Source: an uncultured Desulfobacteraceae bacterium
GTDB lineage: Bacteria > Desulfobacterota > Desulfobacteria > Desulfobacterales > JAABSP01
Assembly: GCA_964652715.1 (NCBI GenBank)
Contig: CAZZBE010000001.1
Coordinates: 1 to 59,753 of the forward strand
Reading direction: 5' to 3'
DNA length: 59,753 nucleotides
Positions 21,963 through 32,637 of the stretch are shown piece by piece (within the stretch, counting starts at the first letter, position 1; every line of letters begins with the position of its first letter). The notes beneath the pieces were generated by a model. The model ran no database searches, was not told where the DNA came from, and saw only the letters and a list, made by a program, of their open reading frames with translations. Position numbers and translations under genes: made by a program.

Positions 21963-22751
21963 TCAGATCGCGCCGATCTCCGATCCCTTCACCCAGCCGA
22001 TCTTGCCTTCTGAAAACCAGATCCGGTAAAATTCTTCCTTTTGCCCCTGAATCGCCACTTTGGCGCCGGCATGGAGAACGAACAGTTCGGTGGCGTCCTC
22101 CGACAAACCGGATCGCACCGAGATCGTTTCCGGCAACACAATCCCCTCCCGCAGACAGGCGGCTTCATAATAATTGTAAAGCGCGGTGGCCGTGAAAATG
22201 AGCGCCGCCGCCAACAGGGGATAGGCGACCCCTTTCATCACCCGTTTCCGCCGAAGAAAACGGACCGTCAGGGCGAGCCAGAACAAACCGTTGAAGACCA
22301 GGGCGACGGCCGCCGCCGCCCGGGGGCTCAGGAGGCGCCGCCAGAAGAACAGGATGCGATAGACGGGGGCGGATTCGTCTTCCCGCTCGTCTTTTACAAG
22401 AGAGGTTGCGTAGGCGTGGTTGAAAGCGAGGTCCGGGTCGTCCGGGGCCAGTTTCAACGCCCGCTCGTACCAAAGAATGGCCGGGCCCAGATCGCCGCTT
22501 TTGAGACAGGCGTTTCCCAGATTGTAGTAGAGGTGAGGGTTCCGGACGCCGGAGGCCGCGAGGGTCCTGAACGCGGCGACCGCGGCGCCGTATGCCCCCC
22601 GCCGGTAGGCTTCCACGCCCTCCAGGAACGTCCGGGCCGCCGCGGATCGGTCTTCGGCGGCGTCCGCCGGTCCCGCCAGGGCCAGCAGGCCGAGCATGAC
22701 GGCGGCGCACCCCCAGGCGGCAACGGTTCGTTTGGGCGGCCGGGCGCTCAC
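21963..22751 (-). CDS. batE: BatE-like TPR + SH3b-domain membrane protein
   Basis: 262 aa. Signal/TM segment, TPR repeats (YYNLGNACLKSGDLGPAILWYERALKLAP), internal TM helices and a C-terminal SH3b-like FYRIWFSEGKIGWVKGSEIG. It overlaps batD by 4 nt. Confidence 0.75.
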   Translation of the reverse strand: MSARPPKRTVAAWGCAAVMLGLLALAGPADAAEDRSAAARTFLEGVEAYRRGAYGAAVAAFRTLAASGVRNPHLYYNLGNACLKSGDLGPAILWYERALKLAPDDPDLAFNHAYATSLVKDEREDESAPVYRILFFWRRLLSPRAAAAVALVFNGLFWLALTVRFLRRKRVMKGVAYPLLAAALIFTATALYNYYEAACLREGIVLPETISVRSGLSEDATELFVLHAGAKVAIQGQKEEFYRIWFSEGKIGWVKGSEIGAI

Positions 22752-24556
22752 GATATCCGCCTGACAAGGCGCCGGGTCTCTGACAGCAGCCGCTCCCGAT
22801 CCCGGGGATCCAGGGAAGCGCCGCCGAATTTGGCGGATTCGATCCGCTCCAGAAGCCCCGCGGCCTGCTGGACGACTTCCGGAGGGTATCCCTGTCCGCG
22901 CAGAATCGTTTCGGCTTCGGCGCCGGTGAGGGATTCCCCCAAAGCCCCGGCCCTGGAGAGAATCGCCGACACCACTCCCCTGTAGAGGCAGGAGAGAAAG
23001 ACGTCCTCCCCGGTGCCGGAAGCGCCGGCCTTTTTCAGGGAAACATGGGCCCGACGCGCCATGCGGCCGGCCGGATCATCCCCCTTGCGAAGGGCGAGAA
23101 AGAGTCCGCCCACCCCCGCGAAAAGGGCCGCCGGGACGCCGAGAAGGGCCAGGAACCACTGGATGGAAAGCGGCCGCCGGGTCTCCAGCGCGCTCAGATC
23201 GTCCCGTATGGGCAGGATGTCCCGTCCCGTAAACGCCACTTTCTGCCTGGCGGTCCCGTTTCCGTCGGTGGGGGCCGAAACCACGGTCATCTCTTTTTCC
23301 GCTTCCCCCTTCTCAACGGTCAAAGAGAAAGACGCCGTTTCGCGGTGGACATAGGTCTCCGATCCGGTGTCGAAATAGGTCAGTTTCGCGGGCGGCAGTC
23401 GGTAGACGCCGGGTTCCAGTGGGACCAGGGCCGTCCGGAAGGTCTTTTTCCCGAAGTAGCCGTTGCTGTCCAGGGCGATCTCCTCCTGGGGCGCGTCCGC
23501 ATAAGCCTTGAACCCGTCCGGAACGTCGATGGCCGGGGCTTTGGCGTCCACGATATTGCCGGCGCCCTCGATAACGAGGGTCAGCGTGGCGGATTCTCCC
23601 GTCTTGAGGTTTGTTTTATCGAGGCTCGCCCGGATGTCCATCTTTCCCACCAGCCCGGAAAAGGGGTGGGCGCCCTGAGGGTCCGGCAGGGGAATAACGT
23701 CGATGTCGATGGCTTCCGTCCGCAGGACCCGGGTTTCCACCCGGCCCCCGCCGAAGAGGGAATCGAAATCGAAGGGCGAATTTCCGCCCCGATGATCCCG
23801 ATGGACCACGCCGCATTCCAGAACGGCGGGTTGGATGGTTTTCGGCCCGGCGGTCAGCGGGATCAGCACATAGGAGAGCGTGGTGGTGTGAAATCGTTTT
23901 CCGTCGATCACGGCGATGTCGGAGCGCTCTTCCCCGATCCCTTCGGCCGTGAACCCGGAAAAATCCGGCTTCCGGAACTGGGCTTCGGTGATCCGGAGAG
24001 TCCGGTGGAGACGGAAGGTGTAGACCAGCTGCTCTCCCGCATAGGGACGGTCGTTGGAAACCTCCGCCCTGACGAAGATGTCGCGATCCTCCGCGCTTTT
24101 TTGGGGTCGTTCGGAGACCGCGATGTCGATTTTCCGGGTCCTGTAGTCGCCCTCGGGGGTCCGGACGGTGAGGGGCGGAATCCGAAGGTCGCCGGCTTTC
24201 ACGGGGATGAGGGTGTAGTTGAAGAGGATCTCCCGGGACGCCGTTCCATTGACGACCCGGAGATTGGTGCTCCGGCCCCGGGGGATGACCTTGAAATCCC
24301 GGATCGGGGAGACATCCACGTCTCCGTCCCGGACCCCGGAGGCCGACACCCGGAGCTGGATGGATTCGCCCAGGGCCGCCGTGTTCCGATCCACTGTCGC
24401 CTGAACCGAAGCGGCTTCCGCCGGGGCGGCGAAGGGGCATAAAAGCATCGTCAGGCAGAGGCAGATAGTGGATAGTGGATAGTGGATAGTGATACCACAA
24501 GCCACAAGCCACAAGCCACAAACAAGCCACAAGCCACAAACAAGAGACAAGCTCAC
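22748..24556 (-). CDS. batD: BatD-like (oxygen-tolerance family) membrane protein
   Basis: 602 aa from GTG 24556, which overlaps the upstream stop by 4 nt (GTGA). The alternative ATG is 24448. The body has repeated beta-rich segments and a C-terminal TM + helical domain typical of BatD. The N-terminal 36 aa are encoded by heptamer repeats. Confidence 0.75.
   Translation of the reverse strand: MSLSLVCGLWLVCGLWLVACGITIHYPLSTICLCLTMLLCPFAAPAEAASVQATVDRNTAALGESIQLRVSASGVRDGDVDVSPIRDFKVIPRGRSTNLRVVNGTASREILFNYTLIPVKAGDLRIPPLTVRTPEGDYRTRKIDIAVSERPQKSAEDRDIFVRAEVSNDRPYAGEQLVYTFRLHRTLRITEAQFRKPDFSGFTAEGIGEERSDIAVIDGKRFHTTTLSYVLIPLTAGPKTIQPAVLECGVVHRDHRGGNSPFDFDSLFGGGRVETRVLRTEAIDIDVIPLPDPQGAHPFSGLVGKMDIRASLDKTNLKTGESATLTLVIEGAGNIVDAKAPAIDVPDGFKAYADAPQEEIALDSNGYFGKKTFRTALVPLEPGVYRLPPAKLTYFDTGSETYVHRETASFSLTVEKGEAEKEMTVVSAPTDGNGTARQKVAFTGRDILPIRDDLSALETRRPLSIQWFLALLGVPAALFAGVGGLFLALRKGDDPAGRMARRAHVSLKKAGASGTGEDVFLSCLYRGVVSAILSRAGALGESLTGAEAETILRGQGYPPEVVQQAAGLLERIESAKFGGASLDPRDRERLLSETRRLVRRIS
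24464..24551. repeat. Compound heptanucleotide microsatellite
   Basis: GATAGTG x4 (24464-24491), CCACAAG x3 (24495-24515), then CCACAAACAAG / CCACAAG / CCACAAACAAG / AGACAAG up to 24551. Confidence 0.95.
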
Positions 24557-26382
24557 CAGTCTTTCTCCACCGCCGGACGCCCATAGCGCGGCGCCGGCAT
24601 CAGCGCTTTTCCGGGCTGATCCTTCAGCCGGTTCAGGGCCCGCTTCGCCGCTTCGCGTTCGGCGTCGTCCGGAGGGGCTTCGGCGGCCGCTGTCGAAGGC
24701 GCCGCCTGAGCGCTCTCCTCCGGCGCGTCTTCATCCGCCTGGGGACCGGGCGGTTGCGCGTCGGTCATTTCGTCGCCGTACTCGGGGCCGGGCTTCGGGG
24801 CGTCCGGTCTCTGTTCCGGCCGCGGATCGGATCGCCGGCCGTCCTTGGATGCTTCGGAAGGCGCGTTTTGCTGTTCCGGTTCGTTCCGTTGAGGCGTTTC
24901 ATTTTCCTTTTTTGGGCCATCCCCTTCCTTGCCGGATTGCTGCTGTTGTTGTTCTTGCTGTTCCATCACCTTTCGGACGAACCGGAGATTCTCCTCCGCC
25001 TGTTGATCGTCGGGATCGATCTTCAGGGCGGCCTCGTAGGCCTTGATCGCCGCTTCGTACTCCTTGTTTCTGAAATGAGCGTTGCCTTTGTTGTACCGCG
25101 CTTTTTCTTCCAGTCCGGCCGGGTTCTTTTCCAAAGCCTGTTTGTAATGGGTCAGCGCGGCTTCGTAGTCCCCCAGTTTGTAGTAGGCGTTGCCGATGTT
25201 GTAGAGGATGTCGGGGCGGTCCGGCGCGTCGAGCTGGGCGTCGATGAAGCGTTTGAGGGCGGTTTCGTATTCCCCCCGGTCATAGGCTTCGACGCCCTCC
25301 TGCAACGGTCCGGCGAAGGTTGGAGAAGGGGATAATGTCCCCGCCAGGAGACACAGGATGCACAGGAGGCGCCCCATCGCAACGCCGGGCGTCCGCCGGA
25401 TCGGCCGCAGGAACAGATCGACGACCACGCAGAGAATGGCGAGGGCCAGGAACCATTGATACCGGTCCTCCCATACCTGCTTGCGGCCGCCGGCCAGGGC
25501 GGCCGCTTCCATTTTACCTCTGATCTCCTGGCGGTAGACGACGTCCAGGTCCATATCGCCGGCCACGGACCGGACGTAGGTTCCCCCGGTCAGCAGGGCC
25601 ATCCGCTGCAAGAGGTCTTCATCGAGCCGGGTCATGACGATCTGTCCTTCCCGATCCTTTTTGAACCCGCCGTCCGCGGCGGGCACCGGAACCCCCTCCT
25701 CGCCGCCGACGCCGATGCAAAACAGCGTGATCCCCGCTTCGTCCAGCTTTCGGGCCGCCGCCACCGGATCGCCCCGGCCGGTGTTCTCGCCGTCGGTGAT
25801 CAGAATCACCGCCTTTTCCGCCGCCGATTTGGGGTCGAACCCGTTCCGGGCCACGGTCAGGGCCCCGGTGATGTCGGTCCCGCCCACCGGCAGGTAATCC
25901 GGCGACAGGACTTCGAGGAACAGATGAAACGCCGCGTAGTCGAGGGTAAGAGGACACTGGAGAAAGGCGGTTCCGGAAAAGGCCGCCAGTCCCACCCGGT
26001 CCCCCTGGAGCATGGCGATGAGATCCAGCACCTCCCGTTTGGCCCGGTCGAGCCGGGTGGGTTGAAGGTCCCGGGCCAGCATGGATCGGGAGCAGTCCAG
26101 GGCGATGAGGATGTCCACCCCCCGGCGTTCGATTTCCTGCCAGCGAAAACCGTACCGCGGGCCGGAAAGGGACAGGGAGAGAAACGCCAGCCCGGCGATC
26201 AACAGTCCCCCTTTGACCCACCGCCTTCGGGCGGAGGAGGTCGGCGCGATGACGGCCAGCCCGTTTGGGGAGGCGAACCGGGAGAGGGCTTTCCGCCGCC
26301 GGCGCATGCCGTAGGCGACGATCAGGGCCAATACCGGCGCGGCCCAGATCAGAAAGAGCATTTCGATTCTGGCGAACGTCAT
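24553..26382 (-). CDS. batB: BatB-BatC fusion: VWA domain + TM + TPR domain + acidic/Pro-rich tail
   Basis: 609 aa. MIDAS motif VDILIALDCSRSM. TPR repeats (YNIGNAYYKLGDYEAALTHYKQALEKNP; YNKGNAHFRNKEYEAAIKAYEAALKIDP). Low-complexity Q/E/P C-terminus. Confidence 0.8.
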   Translation of the reverse strand: MTFARIEMLFLIWAAPVLALIVAYGMRRRRKALSRFASPNGLAVIAPTSSARRRWVKGGLLIAGLAFLSLSLSGPRYGFRWQEIERRGVDILIALDCSRSMLARDLQPTRLDRAKREVLDLIAMLQGDRVGLAAFSGTAFLQCPLTLDYAAFHLFLEVLSPDYLPVGGTDITGALTVARNGFDPKSAAEKAVILITDGENTGRGDPVAAARKLDEAGITLFCIGVGGEEGVPVPAADGGFKKDREGQIVMTRLDEDLLQRMALLTGGTYVRSVAGDMDLDVVYRQEIRGKMEAAALAGGRKQVWEDRYQWFLALAILCVVVDLFLRPIRRTPGVAMGRLLCILCLLAGTLSPSPTFAGPLQEGVEAYDRGEYETALKRFIDAQLDAPDRPDILYNIGNAYYKLGDYEAALTHYKQALEKNPAGLEEKARYNKGNAHFRNKEYEAAIKAYEAALKIDPDDQQAEENLRFVRKVMEQQEQQQQQSGKEGDGPKKENETPQRNEPEQQNAPSEASKDGRRSDPRPEQRPDAPKPGPEYGDEMTDAQPPGPQADEDAPEESAQAAPSTAAAEAPPDDAEREAAKRALNRLKDQPGKALMPAPRYGRPAVEKDW

Positions 26383-27377
26383 GGAATCCTCAGAAACCGG
26401 GTGTTGGCCAGCACGGCCCAGGCGGCGAGCAGGCCGAAGGCCGGCGACAGCATATAGGGATAAAGGTCGTTGAATTCGGAAAAGGTCTTTACTTCCACTT
26501 CGGTCTTTTCCAGGGCGTCGATCCGGTCGTAGATGGTGGCGAGGGCCTCGGTATCCTCGGCGCGGAAATAGAGGCCGCCGGTTTTTTCGGCGATGCGCTT
26601 CAGCGTCTCCTCGTCGATGTTCACCCGCTGGTAGACATACCGCTCGCCGAAGACCGGGTCCCTTACCAGGAAAGGGGCCCGCCCGCGCGTACCGACGCCG
26701 ATGGTATAGATCTTGACATGGTGTTCAACCGCGATTTCGCTGGCGGCCCCGGGGGAGAGCTGACCGGCGTTGCTCTGGCCGTCCGTCAGCAGGATGATGA
26801 TGTTCGACGCGCTCTCGATGTCGGAGAGTCGCTTGAGGGAGATGCCGATGGCGTCGCCGATGGCGGTGCTCTTTCCGACGGCCCCGATCTCCAGCCGGTC
26901 GAGCATGGCGGCGATGGCGTTGTAATCCCGGGTCAGCGGGAGTTGCGTGTACGCTTCATCGCCGAAGACCACCAGACCGATCCGGTCGCCCGTCCGCCGC
27001 TGGATAAAGGCCCCCACCACGCCTTTGACCGCTTCCAGCCGGTTGACGATTTTGCCCTCCCGCCGGAAGTCGAGGGCGGCCATGCTTTCGGACAGGTCCA
27101 CGGCCAAAACGATGTTGACGCCTTCGGTCAGCACCATCTCCCGACGGGTCCCCGACTGGGGGCGGGCCATGGCGACGATCATCAGGACCAGGGCCGCGTA
27201 TTTTAAAAACGGGACGATCCACCGGCATTTGAGCGCGGGGGACCGGGGGACCTCCCGGGCGGCCGCCAGGCTCGACATCCGAAGGGTCGGATGGGGGCGG
27301 CGGCGTCGACGGTACAACAACAGGGCCGGCACGACGGCCAGGAGCAGCAGGCAAAGGGGGTCGGCGAACCGGAACAT
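26379..27377 (-). CDS. batA: BatA-like VWA-domain membrane protein
   Basis: Start trimmed to ATG 27377 (MFRFADPLCLLLLAVVPALLLY). MIDAS motif VNIVLAVDLSESM. C-terminal TM helix. 4-nt overlap with batB. Confidence 0.85.
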   Translation of the reverse strand: MFRFADPLCLLLLAVVPALLLYRRRRRPHPTLRMSSLAAAREVPRSPALKCRWIVPFLKYAALVLMIVAMARPQSGTRREMVLTEGVNIVLAVDLSESMAALDFRREGKIVNRLEAVKGVVGAFIQRRTGDRIGLVVFGDEAYTQLPLTRDYNAIAAMLDRLEIGAVGKSTAIGDAIGISLKRLSDIESASNIIILLTDGQSNAGQLSPGAASEIAVEHHVKIYTIGVGTRGRAPFLVRDPVFGERYVYQRVNIDEETLKRIAEKTGGLYFRAEDTEALATIYDRIDALEKTEVEVKTFSEFNDLYPYMLSPAFGLLAAWAVLANTRFLRIP

Positions 27378-27379
27378 GG

Positions 27380-27955
27380 TTATGACGCCGTCTCCCGGAC
27401 AAACGCGACGGCGAAAGCGTGATCCGTTTCCATTTGCCGTTCGACGGTCGCGGCGGCCGCGAACTTGATGGGCTCGGCGGACCGAAAGAACGCCCGGAGT
27501 TTGCCTTGCAAATCCGTCGGCAGGTCCAGGCCCCCGATCCGGGGCAACAGCTCTTCGACGGTCATCCCGGGGGCGTCGATGCCGAATCGGCCCCTGATGT
27601 ATTCCCGGAGGATGGCCGACAGCCGGAAATAGAACTCCCGGCCTTCGAACCGTCCGACGTCGCGAAGGTCTTCCAGCGCCTGGAGGGCGCGCGGCGCCGG
27701 CGGCAACGAGGGAACGGACGGCGCCGGCTTCCGGCGTCTCGACCGCCGGAACATTCGGATCAGAAGGGCCAAAAGGCAGATGACCAGGACGCCGGCCAGG
27801 GCGTAGGAGATCCAGTTCGGATCGGCGGCGGGCCGTTCCGGCGGCTTGATGTCGTGGATGTCCGTCATGGGCGGATCGGTTTGGGATGCCGCCGGGAGCG
27901 CCGCCCCGAGGATCAGCCATCCGATCATCCCCAACACTAAGAGCCGCCGACCCAT
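27380..27955 (-). CDS. DUF4381-like small membrane protein of MoxR/Bat operons
   Basis: 191 aa from ATG 27955 (MGRRLLVLGMIGWLILGAALPAA). A second TM helix, then a helical domain. It sits between DUF58 and batA. Confidence 0.65.
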   Translation of the reverse strand: MGRRLLVLGMIGWLILGAALPAASQTDPPMTDIHDIKPPERPAADPNWISYALAGVLVICLLALLIRMFRRSRRRKPAPSVPSLPPAPRALQALEDLRDVGRFEGREFYFRLSAILREYIRGRFGIDAPGMTVEELLPRIGGLDLPTDLQGKLRAFFRSAEPIKFAAAATVERQMETDHAFAVAFVRETAS

Positions 27956-28856
27956 CACCGCTTTCGGCGCTCCCGGATTCTGAAATACCGGGCGAGGACA
28001 TCCCCGGCATCGCTGGTGGTTTCCATGGGGATGGCGTCGATGCGCGCCCGCTTGAGGCCCCCCAGGATCTCCGCGTATTCCCGGCGTTTTACGGATTCGT
28101 ACCGCTCCCGGGTCTTCCGGTCGGATCCATCCAGATGGTAAAGCGCGCCGGTCTCGGCATCCTCCACCAGCAGGATGCCCGTTTCCGGGAGCCGGAATTC
28201 GCCGGGATCCGACACCACCACGGCGATGAGTTCGTGTCGCATGGACGTCGACCGGAAGGCGCGGGCAGGATCGAAGGGGGCGTCCGGCCGGCGGTTCCGG
28301 ATCAGAAAATCGGAGATGAGAAACGCCGTGGTCCGCTTGCGGCAGACCCGGCCCAGGTAATCCACGGCCGCCTTCAGATCGGTGCCGCGATGGGCGGGCC
28401 GGAAGGAGAACATCTCCCGGATGACCCGCCAGACGTGGGCCGATCCTTTTTTGGGCGGGATGTATTTTTCGACGCCTTCGGTGAACAGAATGGCCCCCAC
28501 CTTGTCGTTGTTCCGGATGGCGTTGAAAGCCAGGATGGAAGCGATCTCGGCCGCGGTCTCTCTTTTGAGGGCATCCGAGGTGCCGAAGAGCCCCGATCCG
28601 CTCATGTCCAAAAGGAGCATGACCACCTGTTCCCGCTCCTCCTTGTACCGTTTCACGAAAGGGCGTCCCATGCGGGCGGAGACCTTCCAGTCGATGCTTT
28701 TGACTTCGTCGCCGGGAACGTATTCCCGCACCTCTTCGAATTCGATCCCCGACCCCCGGAACACCGATTTGTACTGGCCGGCCATGAGGGTGTTGACCCG
28801 TCGGCCGGCCTTGATGTGGATCTTTTTGATTTTTTTGATGATGTCGGTAGAAAGCA

Positions 28857-28857
<1 letters not shown>
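27955..28857 (-). CDS. DUF58-family protein (MoxR-associated, VWA-like)
   Basis: 300 aa. The signature GQYKSVFRGSGIEFEEVREYVPGDEVKSIDWKVSAR is present. Confidence 0.85.
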
Positions 28858-29861
<1,004 letters not shown>

Positions 29862-30011
29862 TTTTTCAACCCATCTAAATTAATGAATGATTCGGCAATG
29901 TCAAGGGCGCTCCCCGCCGCTGTCCAGTTCGGGGCCGGCAACGGGGAGAGTGCTTTTATGGAAACAAAAGGGGAAGGGGCAAAAAAGGAGAAAAGGGGCC
30001 GGCGCACCAGG

Positions 30012-32456
30012 TTATCGTATAACCATGAACCCTTCGGTGTCCCTGGAATCTTTCATGGTCCGCTTCAGAATGGTCTCCCGGGAGAGTTCGGCCCATCGGA
30101 GCACCTGCCGCACCTTGTCTTCCTCCTGATTGCCTGTGGCAAGGCGCATGAATCCCTGATCCGAATTGTTGATTCGGTCCAGCAGCGTCAAATCCGTCTC
30201 CGTGCCGATCCTGCCAAGGGCGCGGAGGATAACCTTCAAATGCTGCATGAGGGTAATCAGGTTTTTCCGACTGTCCTTGAGGCGATAGATATCCGCGGAC
30301 GGGTCGCCATAGGTATTGGCGGCGCTGCGCAGCAACCGGTGGGCGGTTCTTCCTTCCAGCAGCGCCAGGAAAATATAAACTTCCCGTTCAAGGGTGATTA
30401 GATATCGCAGCGGCATGGGAGACGTGTCGGCGCGGACGCCGCCAAGGACGATGCGCAGGTAATTCCGGATGGTCCGCATCTTTCTCATGAAACGATCCTG
30501 CGAGGCGTCGAGGACTTTTGAGACGGCGCTTGTGATTTTCCGGTCGACGCCCTCCCGGACCAGCAGAACTTCCTCGGGGGTCATTTCGATGTCGAGGTTC
30601 AGTTCCTTATTGTACTTCCGGATGAGCAGGTTCGAGAGCATGATGGCGTTTCGATCCGAAAAACTGACGATGGTCGGGTTTTTCAGAAAATCGGTCATCA
30701 GGACGCTGATGGCCTGTTGGGGCTGTTTCATGGAAGCGATCATATGCTGGAGGGAATTGAGAAACGCCACGCGATCCTGGCGACGGAACGTCCCCTTGAG
30801 ATAGTGCCACATGAATTCGAAGATTCGGCGCTCCCATCGGGTGAAGGCGGGGATGTTGGCCTCGAAGGTCTTGCGGAGGAATTGTCCCTCCTCGTTGAAG
30901 CATCTCTTTAGCAGCTCGACGATGTCTTTGGCATCCTTTACCGGGATATCGAAATCGTCCGCCAGGGCCTTATAGTCTCGCGCCGAGAATTGGGTCTTTC
31001 CGCGGACGAGGTTGCGCATTTTTTTTCGAATGCTGACGCGGCTCTTGCTGGCGGCAAGGGTCTTGACGAGTTTGGGGTTGATCTTCCCTAAACTGCCTTC
31101 CTTTCCGCCGACCCGGACTTTGAGAACGCCGTCCTGGACGGCGATGTCGCCCAAAACGCTTTCCGACACCTGCTCGATTCGGCCCTCTATATGATTCAGC
31201 ACCTCTTTGAGAATCTTTTCGCCTTCGGGGTGTTTCTCGATGGCATCCAGCAGTCGGCTGACCAGATAAATACGATTGGCCAGCTGTTGCGCATTGATCC
31301 GTTTGTAATCATTGCCATAGACGCCCTTGATCATGCCCTTGGCCTGCTGAGGCTCCTGGCTGAAATTTTCGCGGATGAGCTGGGTCAATCTGTCATTGGG
31401 CTCTTCTGACAGCATTTCTTCGATCTCCTCGATGTTTTCGCCGGCATCGACCTTTTTGTGATTTCGTTTGTGATTTTGGACATCAATGGGAATATGTTCA
31501 TTGGATCGGGCGGCCGCCCTTCTTTGCCGGCCGGCGCGAACGATTTCGTACTGGGATGTGTTGACTTCAAGGGACGGTCGTTTGAGTTTCCCTTTGGCGG
31601 TTTTGGCGGCGACAATGGCGCTGTAGATGCCGTCTTTCAGCGAAACATCGCCTTTTTCCGCGGCGTCCTGGGTGTTTTTGACAATTTTTTGCATGGCTGC
31701 CTGGCTCAGGCGGTTCAGGCCGGCCAGCATCGTCAGATTGGGATCGTACTGTCGCAGGTGGTTTTGGACCAGCGGCAGGGCCCTGGTTTCGCCGTCCTGT
31801 TCGATCCGGAGGGGGCCGCTCATCTTCGACGCCTGGTGGTATCGGGAGAGAATGAGAAGGCAGAGTTGCATGTCTTCCATCTGTCGCACCGAATCCGGGT
31901 CCGGGATATGGATGTCGAGGCTGTTGATGGAGTGGTTGGAAAGCACCTCGAAGGCCTTCAGGAGGCGCTTGTCCAGGTGCGACATCCGGACGCCCATCCG
32001 CTTGGCCATGGATTGCGCGACGCTGAGGTCGATCATGATCTCGCCGAACACCAGTTCGTAATCGAGTTCACCGGTTCGGGACGCGCTCGAGGTGAATCCG
32101 CGGTGGCAGATTTGAATGATATCGACGTCAATCGGGATGTCGGATATTTTTCGAAATACGTCTTCGAGCCGTGCGAATGAGGGCGGTTCTTTTTTCACGC
32201 CTTCCCGGAGCTGCTTTTCCAGGATGTGGGAAGCGATGATGTGGGCGGCTTCGATGAGAAGGGCGCGCCATGCATCCAGTTCGGTTTCCTTAACGGTTAA
32301 ACTAGGGAGGGCGCCGTACAGGGGACCTTCGTCTTCTGACGTGATATCGAGACTTTGGAACAGTTTGTCGGCCTGTTCGTCGAGTTTGAAGTCTTTTTTA
32401 TCGTTCATGGGATTGAGGGCATCCTTGCAATACGGTGTTGCCGACGGGTTTAACAT
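30012..32456 (-). CDS. Large hypothetical protein (814 aa), predicted all-helical, no recognisable motif
   Basis: Uninterrupted 814-aa ORF rich in K/R/E/L. I found no Walker A, metal-binding, nuclease, TM or signal motif. It has its own promoter. All overlapping ORFs are short shadows. Confidence 0.7.
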   Translation of the reverse strand: MLNPSATPYCKDALNPMNDKKDFKLDEQADKLFQSLDITSEDEGPLYGALPSLTVKETELDAWRALLIEAAHIIASHILEKQLREGVKKEPPSFARLEDVFRKISDIPIDVDIIQICHRGFTSSASRTGELDYELVFGEIMIDLSVAQSMAKRMGVRMSHLDKRLLKAFEVLSNHSINSLDIHIPDPDSVRQMEDMQLCLLILSRYHQASKMSGPLRIEQDGETRALPLVQNHLRQYDPNLTMLAGLNRLSQAAMQKIVKNTQDAAEKGDVSLKDGIYSAIVAAKTAKGKLKRPSLEVNTSQYEIVRAGRQRRAAARSNEHIPIDVQNHKRNHKKVDAGENIEEIEEMLSEEPNDRLTQLIRENFSQEPQQAKGMIKGVYGNDYKRINAQQLANRIYLVSRLLDAIEKHPEGEKILKEVLNHIEGRIEQVSESVLGDIAVQDGVLKVRVGGKEGSLGKINPKLVKTLAASKSRVSIRKKMRNLVRGKTQFSARDYKALADDFDIPVKDAKDIVELLKRCFNEEGQFLRKTFEANIPAFTRWERRIFEFMWHYLKGTFRRQDRVAFLNSLQHMIASMKQPQQAISVLMTDFLKNPTIVSFSDRNAIMLSNLLIRKYNKELNLDIEMTPEEVLLVREGVDRKITSAVSKVLDASQDRFMRKMRTIRNYLRIVLGGVRADTSPMPLRYLITLEREVYIFLALLEGRTAHRLLRSAANTYGDPSADIYRLKDSRKNLITLMQHLKVILRALGRIGTETDLTLLDRINNSDQGFMRLATGNQEEDKVRQVLRWAELSRETILKRTMKDSRDTEGFMVIR

Positions 32457-32471
32457 GGCGTACTGAAGGGG

Positions 32472-32500
32472 ATTATTTCAAAAAATGGAAAGTAAGTCAA
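32472..32500 (-). promoter_or_regulatory. Candidate extended -10 promoter of the 814-aa gene
   Basis: On the minus strand: TTGACT (32500-32495), 17 nt, TG-a-AATAAT (32477-32472). The -10 ends about 15 nt before ATG 32456 with no SD in between, implying a very short leader. Confidence 0.45.
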
Positions 32501-32637
32501 CGCAAAGAAACGGTTTCGATCTTATAAAAACCCTCTGGGAGGATGGGGCGTCCGCCTTTTTTTCGTAAGACTCGATGCGCTGGTTAAGGGCCTCGGCCTT
32601 CTGGTTGTATTCCCGGAGTTGGAAGTTCTCCACGGTT

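Follow-up and report, generated by a model that had tools for sequence, protein, structure and literature searches.

The closest described counterparts of the gene studied here are found in two settings. One is the MoxR-VWA/Bat operon, with its BatA-E, DUF58 and DUF4381 proteins; the other is the set of partners of ATPases in type II secretion systems (T2SS) and type IV pili (T4P), for example, the cytoplasmic domain of GspL/EpsL, PilM and the FimX-PilZ adaptors of PilB. The gene lies in a stretch of 59,753 nucleotides (nt) from an uncultured Desulfobacteraceae bacterium (contig CAZZBE010000001.1 of assembly GCA_964652715.1), hereafter the window, and X (protein X, P0001) is our working name for the product of its open reading frame (ORF) at 30012..32456 on the minus strand. 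An earlier reading of the letters alone (hereafter the sequence-only reading) had described X as an orphan helical protein directly upstream of MoxR/Bat genes and considered that it could be a large partner or scaffold of the MoxR/VWA machinery, or else have an unrelated novel function, which is still possible. On the basis of surveys of genomes, gene neighborhoods and structure models, we propose that X may act as a facultative cytoplasmic accessory, either an adaptor or a regulator, of ATPase-driven envelope or pilus-type assemblies. We assign this reading a probability of roughly 0.3-0.4.

The X family and its MshEN-T2SSE ATPase neighborhood

Two sets of genomes were used, one of 401 genomes sampled evenly over the phylum and one of 401 species genomes, representing 174 genera, from the order of the window. 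Members of the X family were detected in 3 of the 401 genomes of the phylum sample, all 3 of which belonged to the window's order, and none could be found in the approximately 387 genomes sampled from other orders of the phylum. Within the order, the family was present in 122 of the 401 genomes and 62 of the 174 genera, often in two copies, and the carriers included Desulfatibacillum alkenivorans DSM 16219, Desulfonema limicola, Desulfobacula, Desulfosarcina, Ca. Magnetocorallium and the Olavius Delta-1 symbiont. D. alkenivorans has at least one copy (L160). The family was also seen in a small number of metagenome-assembled genomes (MAGs) of Desulfatiglandales and Desulfarculia. Judged from these surveys, the family is essentially confined to Desulfobacterales, in which it occurs in about 30% of species. 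The homologs of X fell into 71 clusters at 90% identity and 316 at 50% identity. The genome of the window encodes, besides X itself, another full-length family member of approximately 773 amino acids (aa; contig C358:1065-3461, plus strand), and a six-frame search of this genome with hidden Markov models of three X regions revealed no distant paralogs beyond the two copies. The second copy lies on a 4.5-kb contig and falls in another clade of the family tree than the window copy; its identity to X is 45% over the C-terminal and 33% over the N-terminal part, and its GC content is 63.9%.

The neighborhood of X was surveyed at about 100 distinct loci (L numbers). The commonest neighbor was a MshEN-T2SSE ATPase of about 600 aa (MshE/PilB-type), encoded directly downstream on the same strand (for example, L001, L003, L004 and L173). 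At such loci, genes for DUF4124 and PilY1 proteins usually preceded X, and a convergent LysM gene, groEL and groES followed the ATPase. Among genomes holding both X and the ATPase, the two genes were adjacent (28-1135 nt apart) in 24 of 49, distributed over 7 GTDB families, as determined by coordinate cross-match, and this adjacency recurred in at least three clades of the X family tree. Short forms consisting of the C-terminal module only were also observed in mshE-linked settings (L003, L136 and L173). In yet another clade, a different ATPase, of MshEN-T2SSE-REC architecture, was convergent to X. It should be added that the order of genes in the Desulfobacterales block is pilY1, a small gene in some cases, DUF4124, X where present, the MshEN-T2SSE ATPase, convergent LysM, groEL, groES, Zn-ribbon and Band_7 (L001, L004, L048, L076, L077, L082, L173 and L175-L180), with no platform protein (GspF/PilC) adjacent, and that the convergent ATPase, which is 742 aa long and carries a C-terminal receiver domain, ends 12-17 nt from the X stop codon in Desulfatiglandales/Desulfobacteraceae MAGs (L155, L162, L166 and L167).

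Upstream of X, the window contains purQ, a Uma2 gene and purL. Because L092, from the window's own family, has MoxR on the downstream side of X and still has PilY1 and DUF4124 on the upstream side, and because purLQ occurs near the block in L048 and L180, the window copy looks like a positional descendant of the mshE-linked locus. An ortholog of the ATPase (63% identity or more) was present in 203 of the 401 genomes of the order. The window's genome had none; the best candidate reached 45.6% identity over the ATPase domain only, and no match passed an E-value of 1e-170. Its lysM-groEL-groES cluster was found on contig C66 without mshE, and a 263-aa gene (C66:5161-5952, plus strand) occupies the slot that elsewhere is held by mshE convergent to lysM.

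These settings suggest a history in which the X family would have arisen, and would mostly still sit, between DUF4124 and the ATPase in a pilY1-DUF4124-X-mshE-lysM block. The lineage of the window would then have lost its mshE ortholog, and a rearrangement would have placed the moxR-bat operon beside X, with the purLQ side retained from the ancestral arrangement. In the corresponding functional scheme, binding or catalysis would be the task of the helical C-terminal module as the core of the protein, in which Arg/Asp/Asn/Glu motifs are invariant, and the N-terminal domain would be a regulatory add-on. The accessory role is proposed because the mshE-linked block, the convergent MshEN-T2SSE-REC ATPase and, in two clades, a Bat operon all abut X.

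Architecture of the protein and structure of the gene

X is rich in Leu, Arg, Lys, Ile and Glu and has a pI of 9.3. As the sequence-only reading had noted, it has no transmembrane segment (the best 19-residue Kyte-Doolittle window was 1.04), and it is soluble. Nucleic-acid binding, which the pI had suggested, was rejected, since pI values within the family span 4.8 to 9.6. The AlphaFold2 (AF2) model of the whole protein, built from a 40-sequence alignment, had a predicted local distance difference test score (pLDDT) of 76.9 and a predicted template modeling score (pTM) of 0.48, and the N-terminal domain was also modeled alone from 61 sequences. X is a soluble cytoplasmic protein of two modules, for which the models predict an alpha/beta N-terminal domain and a conserved helical C-terminal module separated by a variable linker (Table 1). 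Conserved residues of the N-terminal domain include R119, G120, D132, Y133, D143, R153, D238, N240, L241, N248, E297 and N299, and the middle region has a conserved basic helix (K471, R473 and K479). The C-terminal module has a mean column identity of 54% and contains the motifs RxDRVAFLNSLQ, SDRNA, RKYNKE, IExTPEEVL, LERE and YGxP; its invariant positions include R559, D561, R562, D601, R602, N603, E624, P627, E628, E629, E690, R691 and E692. It also occurs as a stand-alone protein of 318-472 aa in many Desulfobacterales; the N-terminal domain was never found alone among family members. The helical-repeat or coiled-coil architecture that had been expected from amino-acid composition is thus only partly borne out: the C-terminal core is helical, whereas the N-terminal third is modeled as alpha/beta and the middle region includes a beta-meander.

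The protein was described as an orphan by the sequence-only reading, and the profile and fold searches agree. Neither X nor any of 40-50 relatives matched Pfam-A, NCBIfam, PADLOC or PHROGs, and no PDB sequence was matched by X, whether as a single sequence or as a profile. Foldseek searches with the whole model returned only HEAT/ARM-like noise from the PDB (TM-scores of 0.10-0.18) and nothing at E <= 0.001 from BFVD; the confident model of the N-terminal domain had no credible neighbor in the PDB (best E-value 0.46, TM-score 0.17). No fusion to a known domain was found in the longer family members or in long open frames, and a 1693-aa frame in genome G498, considered as a possible fusion, was a high-GC artifact. 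A literature search for X found nothing. By these sequence and model comparisons, X would represent a family that is new at the protein-family level, outside the curated families searched and the solved PDB structures.

X is a real gene on which purifying selection acts: dN/dS was 0.13 in comparison with the 80% identical ortholog (L088) and 0.27-0.29 with the 55% identical one (L090). The 814-codon ORF was confirmed, and neither of the two ATG codons in the window (32456 and 32408) is preceded by a good Shine-Dalgarno sequence; in L088 and L090, a G-rich one precedes the X start codon. The predicted promoter, TTGACT-17-TGaAATAAT ending about 15 nt before the first ATG, is also present as claimed (Table 1). 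It scores 10 of 12 consensus positions and is of the extended -10 type, a TG lying two bases ahead of the -10 element; the consensus scan yielded 3 such sites in the region versus 1.1 expected. The DNA upstream of X in L088 and L090 shares with the window the invariant block TTGACTTAC-N7-TTTTTGnAATAAT within flanks that have diverged. We conclude that the promoter is real and conserved.

The near-leaderless start proposed by the sequence-only reading was not confirmed. Although the -10 element ends 15 nt before ATG 32456, the ATG of Met17 lies 48 nt further on, and its equivalent is the start in every full-length homolog aligned. Residues 1-16 of the longest ORF have no counterpart in homologs and were modeled as disordered (pLDDT < 40), and the first ATG falls within what relatives have as 5'-untranslated region. 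Because homologs start at the Met17 equivalent and because the start codons of L088 and L090 are located about 60-100 nt past the same -10 element, the protein probably has 798 aa and its transcript a leader of about 57 nt. The near-leaderless appearance is probably an artifact of choosing the longest ORF. No Rfam match was found in the leader or in the spacer between X and moxR.

Table 1 Features of the X locus in the window (positions in the 59,753-nt window)
Feature	Position	Strand	Basis
Longest ORF of X, 814 aa plus stop	30012..32456	-	dN/dS 0.13 versus 80% ortholog
Probable true coding sequence of X, 798 aa from Met17 (ATG 32408..32406)	30012..32408	-	Starts of homologs
N-terminal alpha/beta domain (predicted), residues ~55-300	31557..32294	-	AF2 model of the domain alone (pLDDT 88.7, pTM 0.87)
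Disordered charged insert (predicted), residues 303-354	31395..31550	-	pLDDT < 50; gap in most homologs, specific to the window's clade
Middle region (predicted), residues 355-484: helices and a three-strand beta-meander (438-458)	31005..31394	-	AF2 model, alignment
C-terminal all-helical core module (predicted), residues 485-807	30036..31004	-	AF2 model; most conserved part
Sigma-70 promoter of X: -35 TTGACT (32500..32495), 17-nt spacer, TG (32480..32479), -10 AATAAT (32477..32472)	32472..32500	-	Consensus scan
Inferred 5' leader of X, ~57 nt, including the non-conserved first ATG (32456)	32409..32465	-	Promoter position and 60-100-nt leaders in relatives
X-moxR spacer with moxR's own promoter-like site: -35 TTGACA (29904..29899), -10-like TTAATT (29883..29878)	29862..30011	-	Conserved in the window, L088, L089, L091 and L092
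moxR, DUF58, DUF4381, batA, batB/C, batD and batE: downstream neighbors, not shown to share the system of X	21963..29861	-	Pfam
Weak terminator-like hairpin and T-run after purQ	32530..32544	-	Consensus scan

MoxR/Bat adjacency and the competing explanations

In the window, moxR (AAA_3 and AAA_lid_2 domains) is encoded downstream of X on the same strand, and the gap of 150 nt given by the sequence-only reading was confirmed. The start of moxR is probably GTG 29837, preceded by GGGAGGA at 29847..29841, rather than ATG 29861 (29835-29861, minus strand); the orthologs in L088 and L089 begin at the equivalent GTG after AGGAGG. A dedicated MoxR/VWA partner was mostly unsupported by the survey. Direct adjacency to moxR (gaps of 125-168 nt) was observed only within a 7-member clade of the family tree, namely, in the window, L088 (80% identity to X), L089 (86%) and L091/L092 (45%); L093 and L094 (44-45%), from the same clade, lack it, and the flank of L090 is too short to judge. 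All five moxR-linked loci have a conserved TTGACA promoter of moxR in the spacer, and in L092 a canonical terminator (8 base pairs, 7 of them GC, followed by TTTTT) comes after X and an 11/12 promoter before moxR, which suggests that X and moxR are separate transcription units in the window's clade. Outside this clade, Bat genes adjoined X in one further, distant clade (L140 from Ca. Desulfacyla, and protein P0048 in L181/L182), in which batA-batB-(C)-batD-batE is followed by X on the same strand, the gap after batE being 45 nt at L181 and 83 nt at L140. The 45-nt gap of L181, the sole gap scanned, contained neither a promoter-like nor a terminator-like site. At these loci (L140:5983-8250; L181:3625-5877), X may be the final gene of the Bat operon. 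No Bat gene was near X at the remaining ~95 loci; batD and X are 63-110 kb apart in three other genomes. Co-occurrence analysis pointed in the same direction, as BatD was present in 59 of 122 genomes with X and in 113 of 279 without it (odds ratio 1.38, p = 0.15, uncorrected for phylogeny), leaving 63 X genomes that lack BatD and 113 BatD genomes that lack X. Even among X carriers with contiguous assemblies, 6 of 12 had no BatD at all.

X is no obligate part of the MoxR/Bat system, nor is it an obligate partner in the mshE-linked setting, and adjacency to moxR in one window should not be spread as a 'Bat/MoxR-associated' annotation. A facultative link to Bat is possible because the second clade has X after batE with no promoter or terminator in the L181 gap. 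All things considered, a role of X as partner or scaffold for the MoxR-DUF58-VWA (Bat) machinery appears unlikely to us: adjacency to moxR has been kept in the window and four relatives across orthologs of 45-86% identity, and X follows batE independently elsewhere; on the other hand, moxR has its own promoter, two loci of the same clade dispense with the adjacency, about half of the X genomes are without BatD, and X shows no VWA, tetratricopeptide repeat (TPR) or transmembrane feature. Two separate juxtapositions of X with Bat genes are nevertheless more than expected by chance, and regional synteny may have made them easier.

A different explanation, which we regard as possible although tentative, is that X is a stand-alone enzyme or ligand-binding regulator whose recurrent neighbors are due to inherited synteny and to chance rearrangement. 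In both domains, invariant polar motifs resemble active or ligand sites, X has its own promoter, it shows no co-occurrence with MshE or with BatD, and it has a 4-nt overlap with a dapB-like gene in another clade. This last arrangement was seen in L172 and ~13 loci of that clade, where the order is PlsB, NTP_transferase/APH (MurU/AmgK-like), DapB and X, with alaS, recA and ligT convergent. Neither mshE nor moxR/bat is a neighbor at 78 of the 103 leaves of the tree, and the syntenic block also holds unrelated housekeeping genes. This explanation has to account for the short distance between X and mshE, down to 19-51 nt in several families with both genes on one strand, for a second ATPase paralog convergent to X and for two independent Bat juxtapositions, which are unlikely for a randomly placed gene; moreover, no catalytic fold or motif was recognized in X. 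Very improbable, in our opinion, is a recently acquired gene of a mobile element or of anti-phage defense. Such an origin would fit the patchy distribution within the order and the composition of X (GC 54.9% versus 62-65% for neighbors; GC content at third codon positions, GC3, 0.71 versus 0.78-0.85), yet PADLOC, PHROGs and BFVD folds gave no match, no integrase or repeats were seen near X, purLQ synteny is kept in the 80% ortholog, and relatives of X are also slightly below their flanks in GC, which fits amino-acid composition. The neighbors with higher values are moxR, purQ, purL and batB; the adjacent Uma2 gene (55.1%, GC3 0.66) is close to X.

Several observations weigh against an accessory of ATPase-driven assemblies as well. 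The ATPase ortholog was present in 59 of 122 genomes with X and in 144 of 279 without it (odds ratio 0.88, p = 0.59), and in genomes lacking X, DUF4124 abuts mshE and the pilY1-DUF4124-mshE-lysM block is intact. The window's genome holds two X copies without any ATPase ortholog, and the 78 leaves mentioned above have neither neighbor. The presence of housekeeping genes (purLQ and groESL) in the block raises the possibility that adjacency within one order may be inherited synteny rather than a functional link. Besides, no biochemical activity or partner is legible from the sequence or fold of X, and X adjoining Bat genes on two separate occasions hints that its association is a different or wider one. 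Our preferred reading of X as a facultative accessory stays within the probability given above. A more far-reaching version, in which X founds a new family with two unseen folds and is an undescribed cytoplasmic adaptor or regulator of MshE-type (c-di-GMP-sensing) secretion/pilus ATPases in Desulfobacterales that has been re-used beside MoxR/Bat in some lineages, seems to us rather unlikely.

If this version is true, X would represent a kind of accessory factor new to ATPase-driven envelope assemblies. Lineage-specific dark families are common, and X without a function would be of moderate interest. With about 800 residues that are constrained in about one-third of Desulfobacterales species, and with confident AlphaFold models although it matches no annotated family or fold, X is a well-defined target for structural and functional studies, and its recurring placement beside MshEN-T2SSE and, twice, MoxR/Bat genes gives access to two envelope systems of sulfate reducers that are poorly understood.

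Comparison with known proteins and systems

Among known folds, HEAT/ARM scaffolds (importin-beta, FANCI and others) were the top Foldseek matches and are all-helical like the C-terminal half of X. However, at a root-mean-square deviation above 20 Å these amount to generic helical noise, the conserved motifs of X are polar and unique rather than repeat-like, and no repeat family (HEAT/ARM/TPR) was detected by Pfam or by TM-scores on known repeat proteins (0.18 at most). For the N-terminal domain, the beta subunit of succinyl-CoA synthetase, an ATP-grasp protein, recurred among the top weak Foldseek matches, and the domain contains both a strand, 'IEVNN', that is similar to the ExN motif and, after 'RYRG', a flexible Gly/Ser loop. 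Because of this strand and the recurring matches, an ATP-grasp profile was tested directly. The identity was rejected: in the hhalign comparison with 19 SucC ATP-grasp domains the probability was only 0.14%, and the structural matches covered ~100 columns at 6.6 Å with E-values of 0.46 or more and a TM-score of 0.17.

At the level of systems, X differs from the components of the MoxR-VWA/Bat operon in having no VWA/MIDAS, TPR, BatD or transmembrane features (Pfam and hydropathy), in being absent from Bat operons generally and, in the window's clade, in being provided with a promoter separate from that of moxR. What it shares with this operon is its position, adjoining it on the same strand in two clades and, in one of them, possibly being co-transcribed after batE. 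In comparison with the T2SS/T4P ATPase partners, X lacks a membrane anchor and any domain of the actin-like, PilZ, GGDEF or EAL type, neither sequence nor fold similarity to them was found, and the ATPase occurs without X in 144 genomes. On the other hand, like these partners, X is soluble and cytoplasmic, and in many genomes its gene directly precedes that of the MshEN-T2SSE ATPase, at loci that also contain PilY1, pilin-like and LysM genes.

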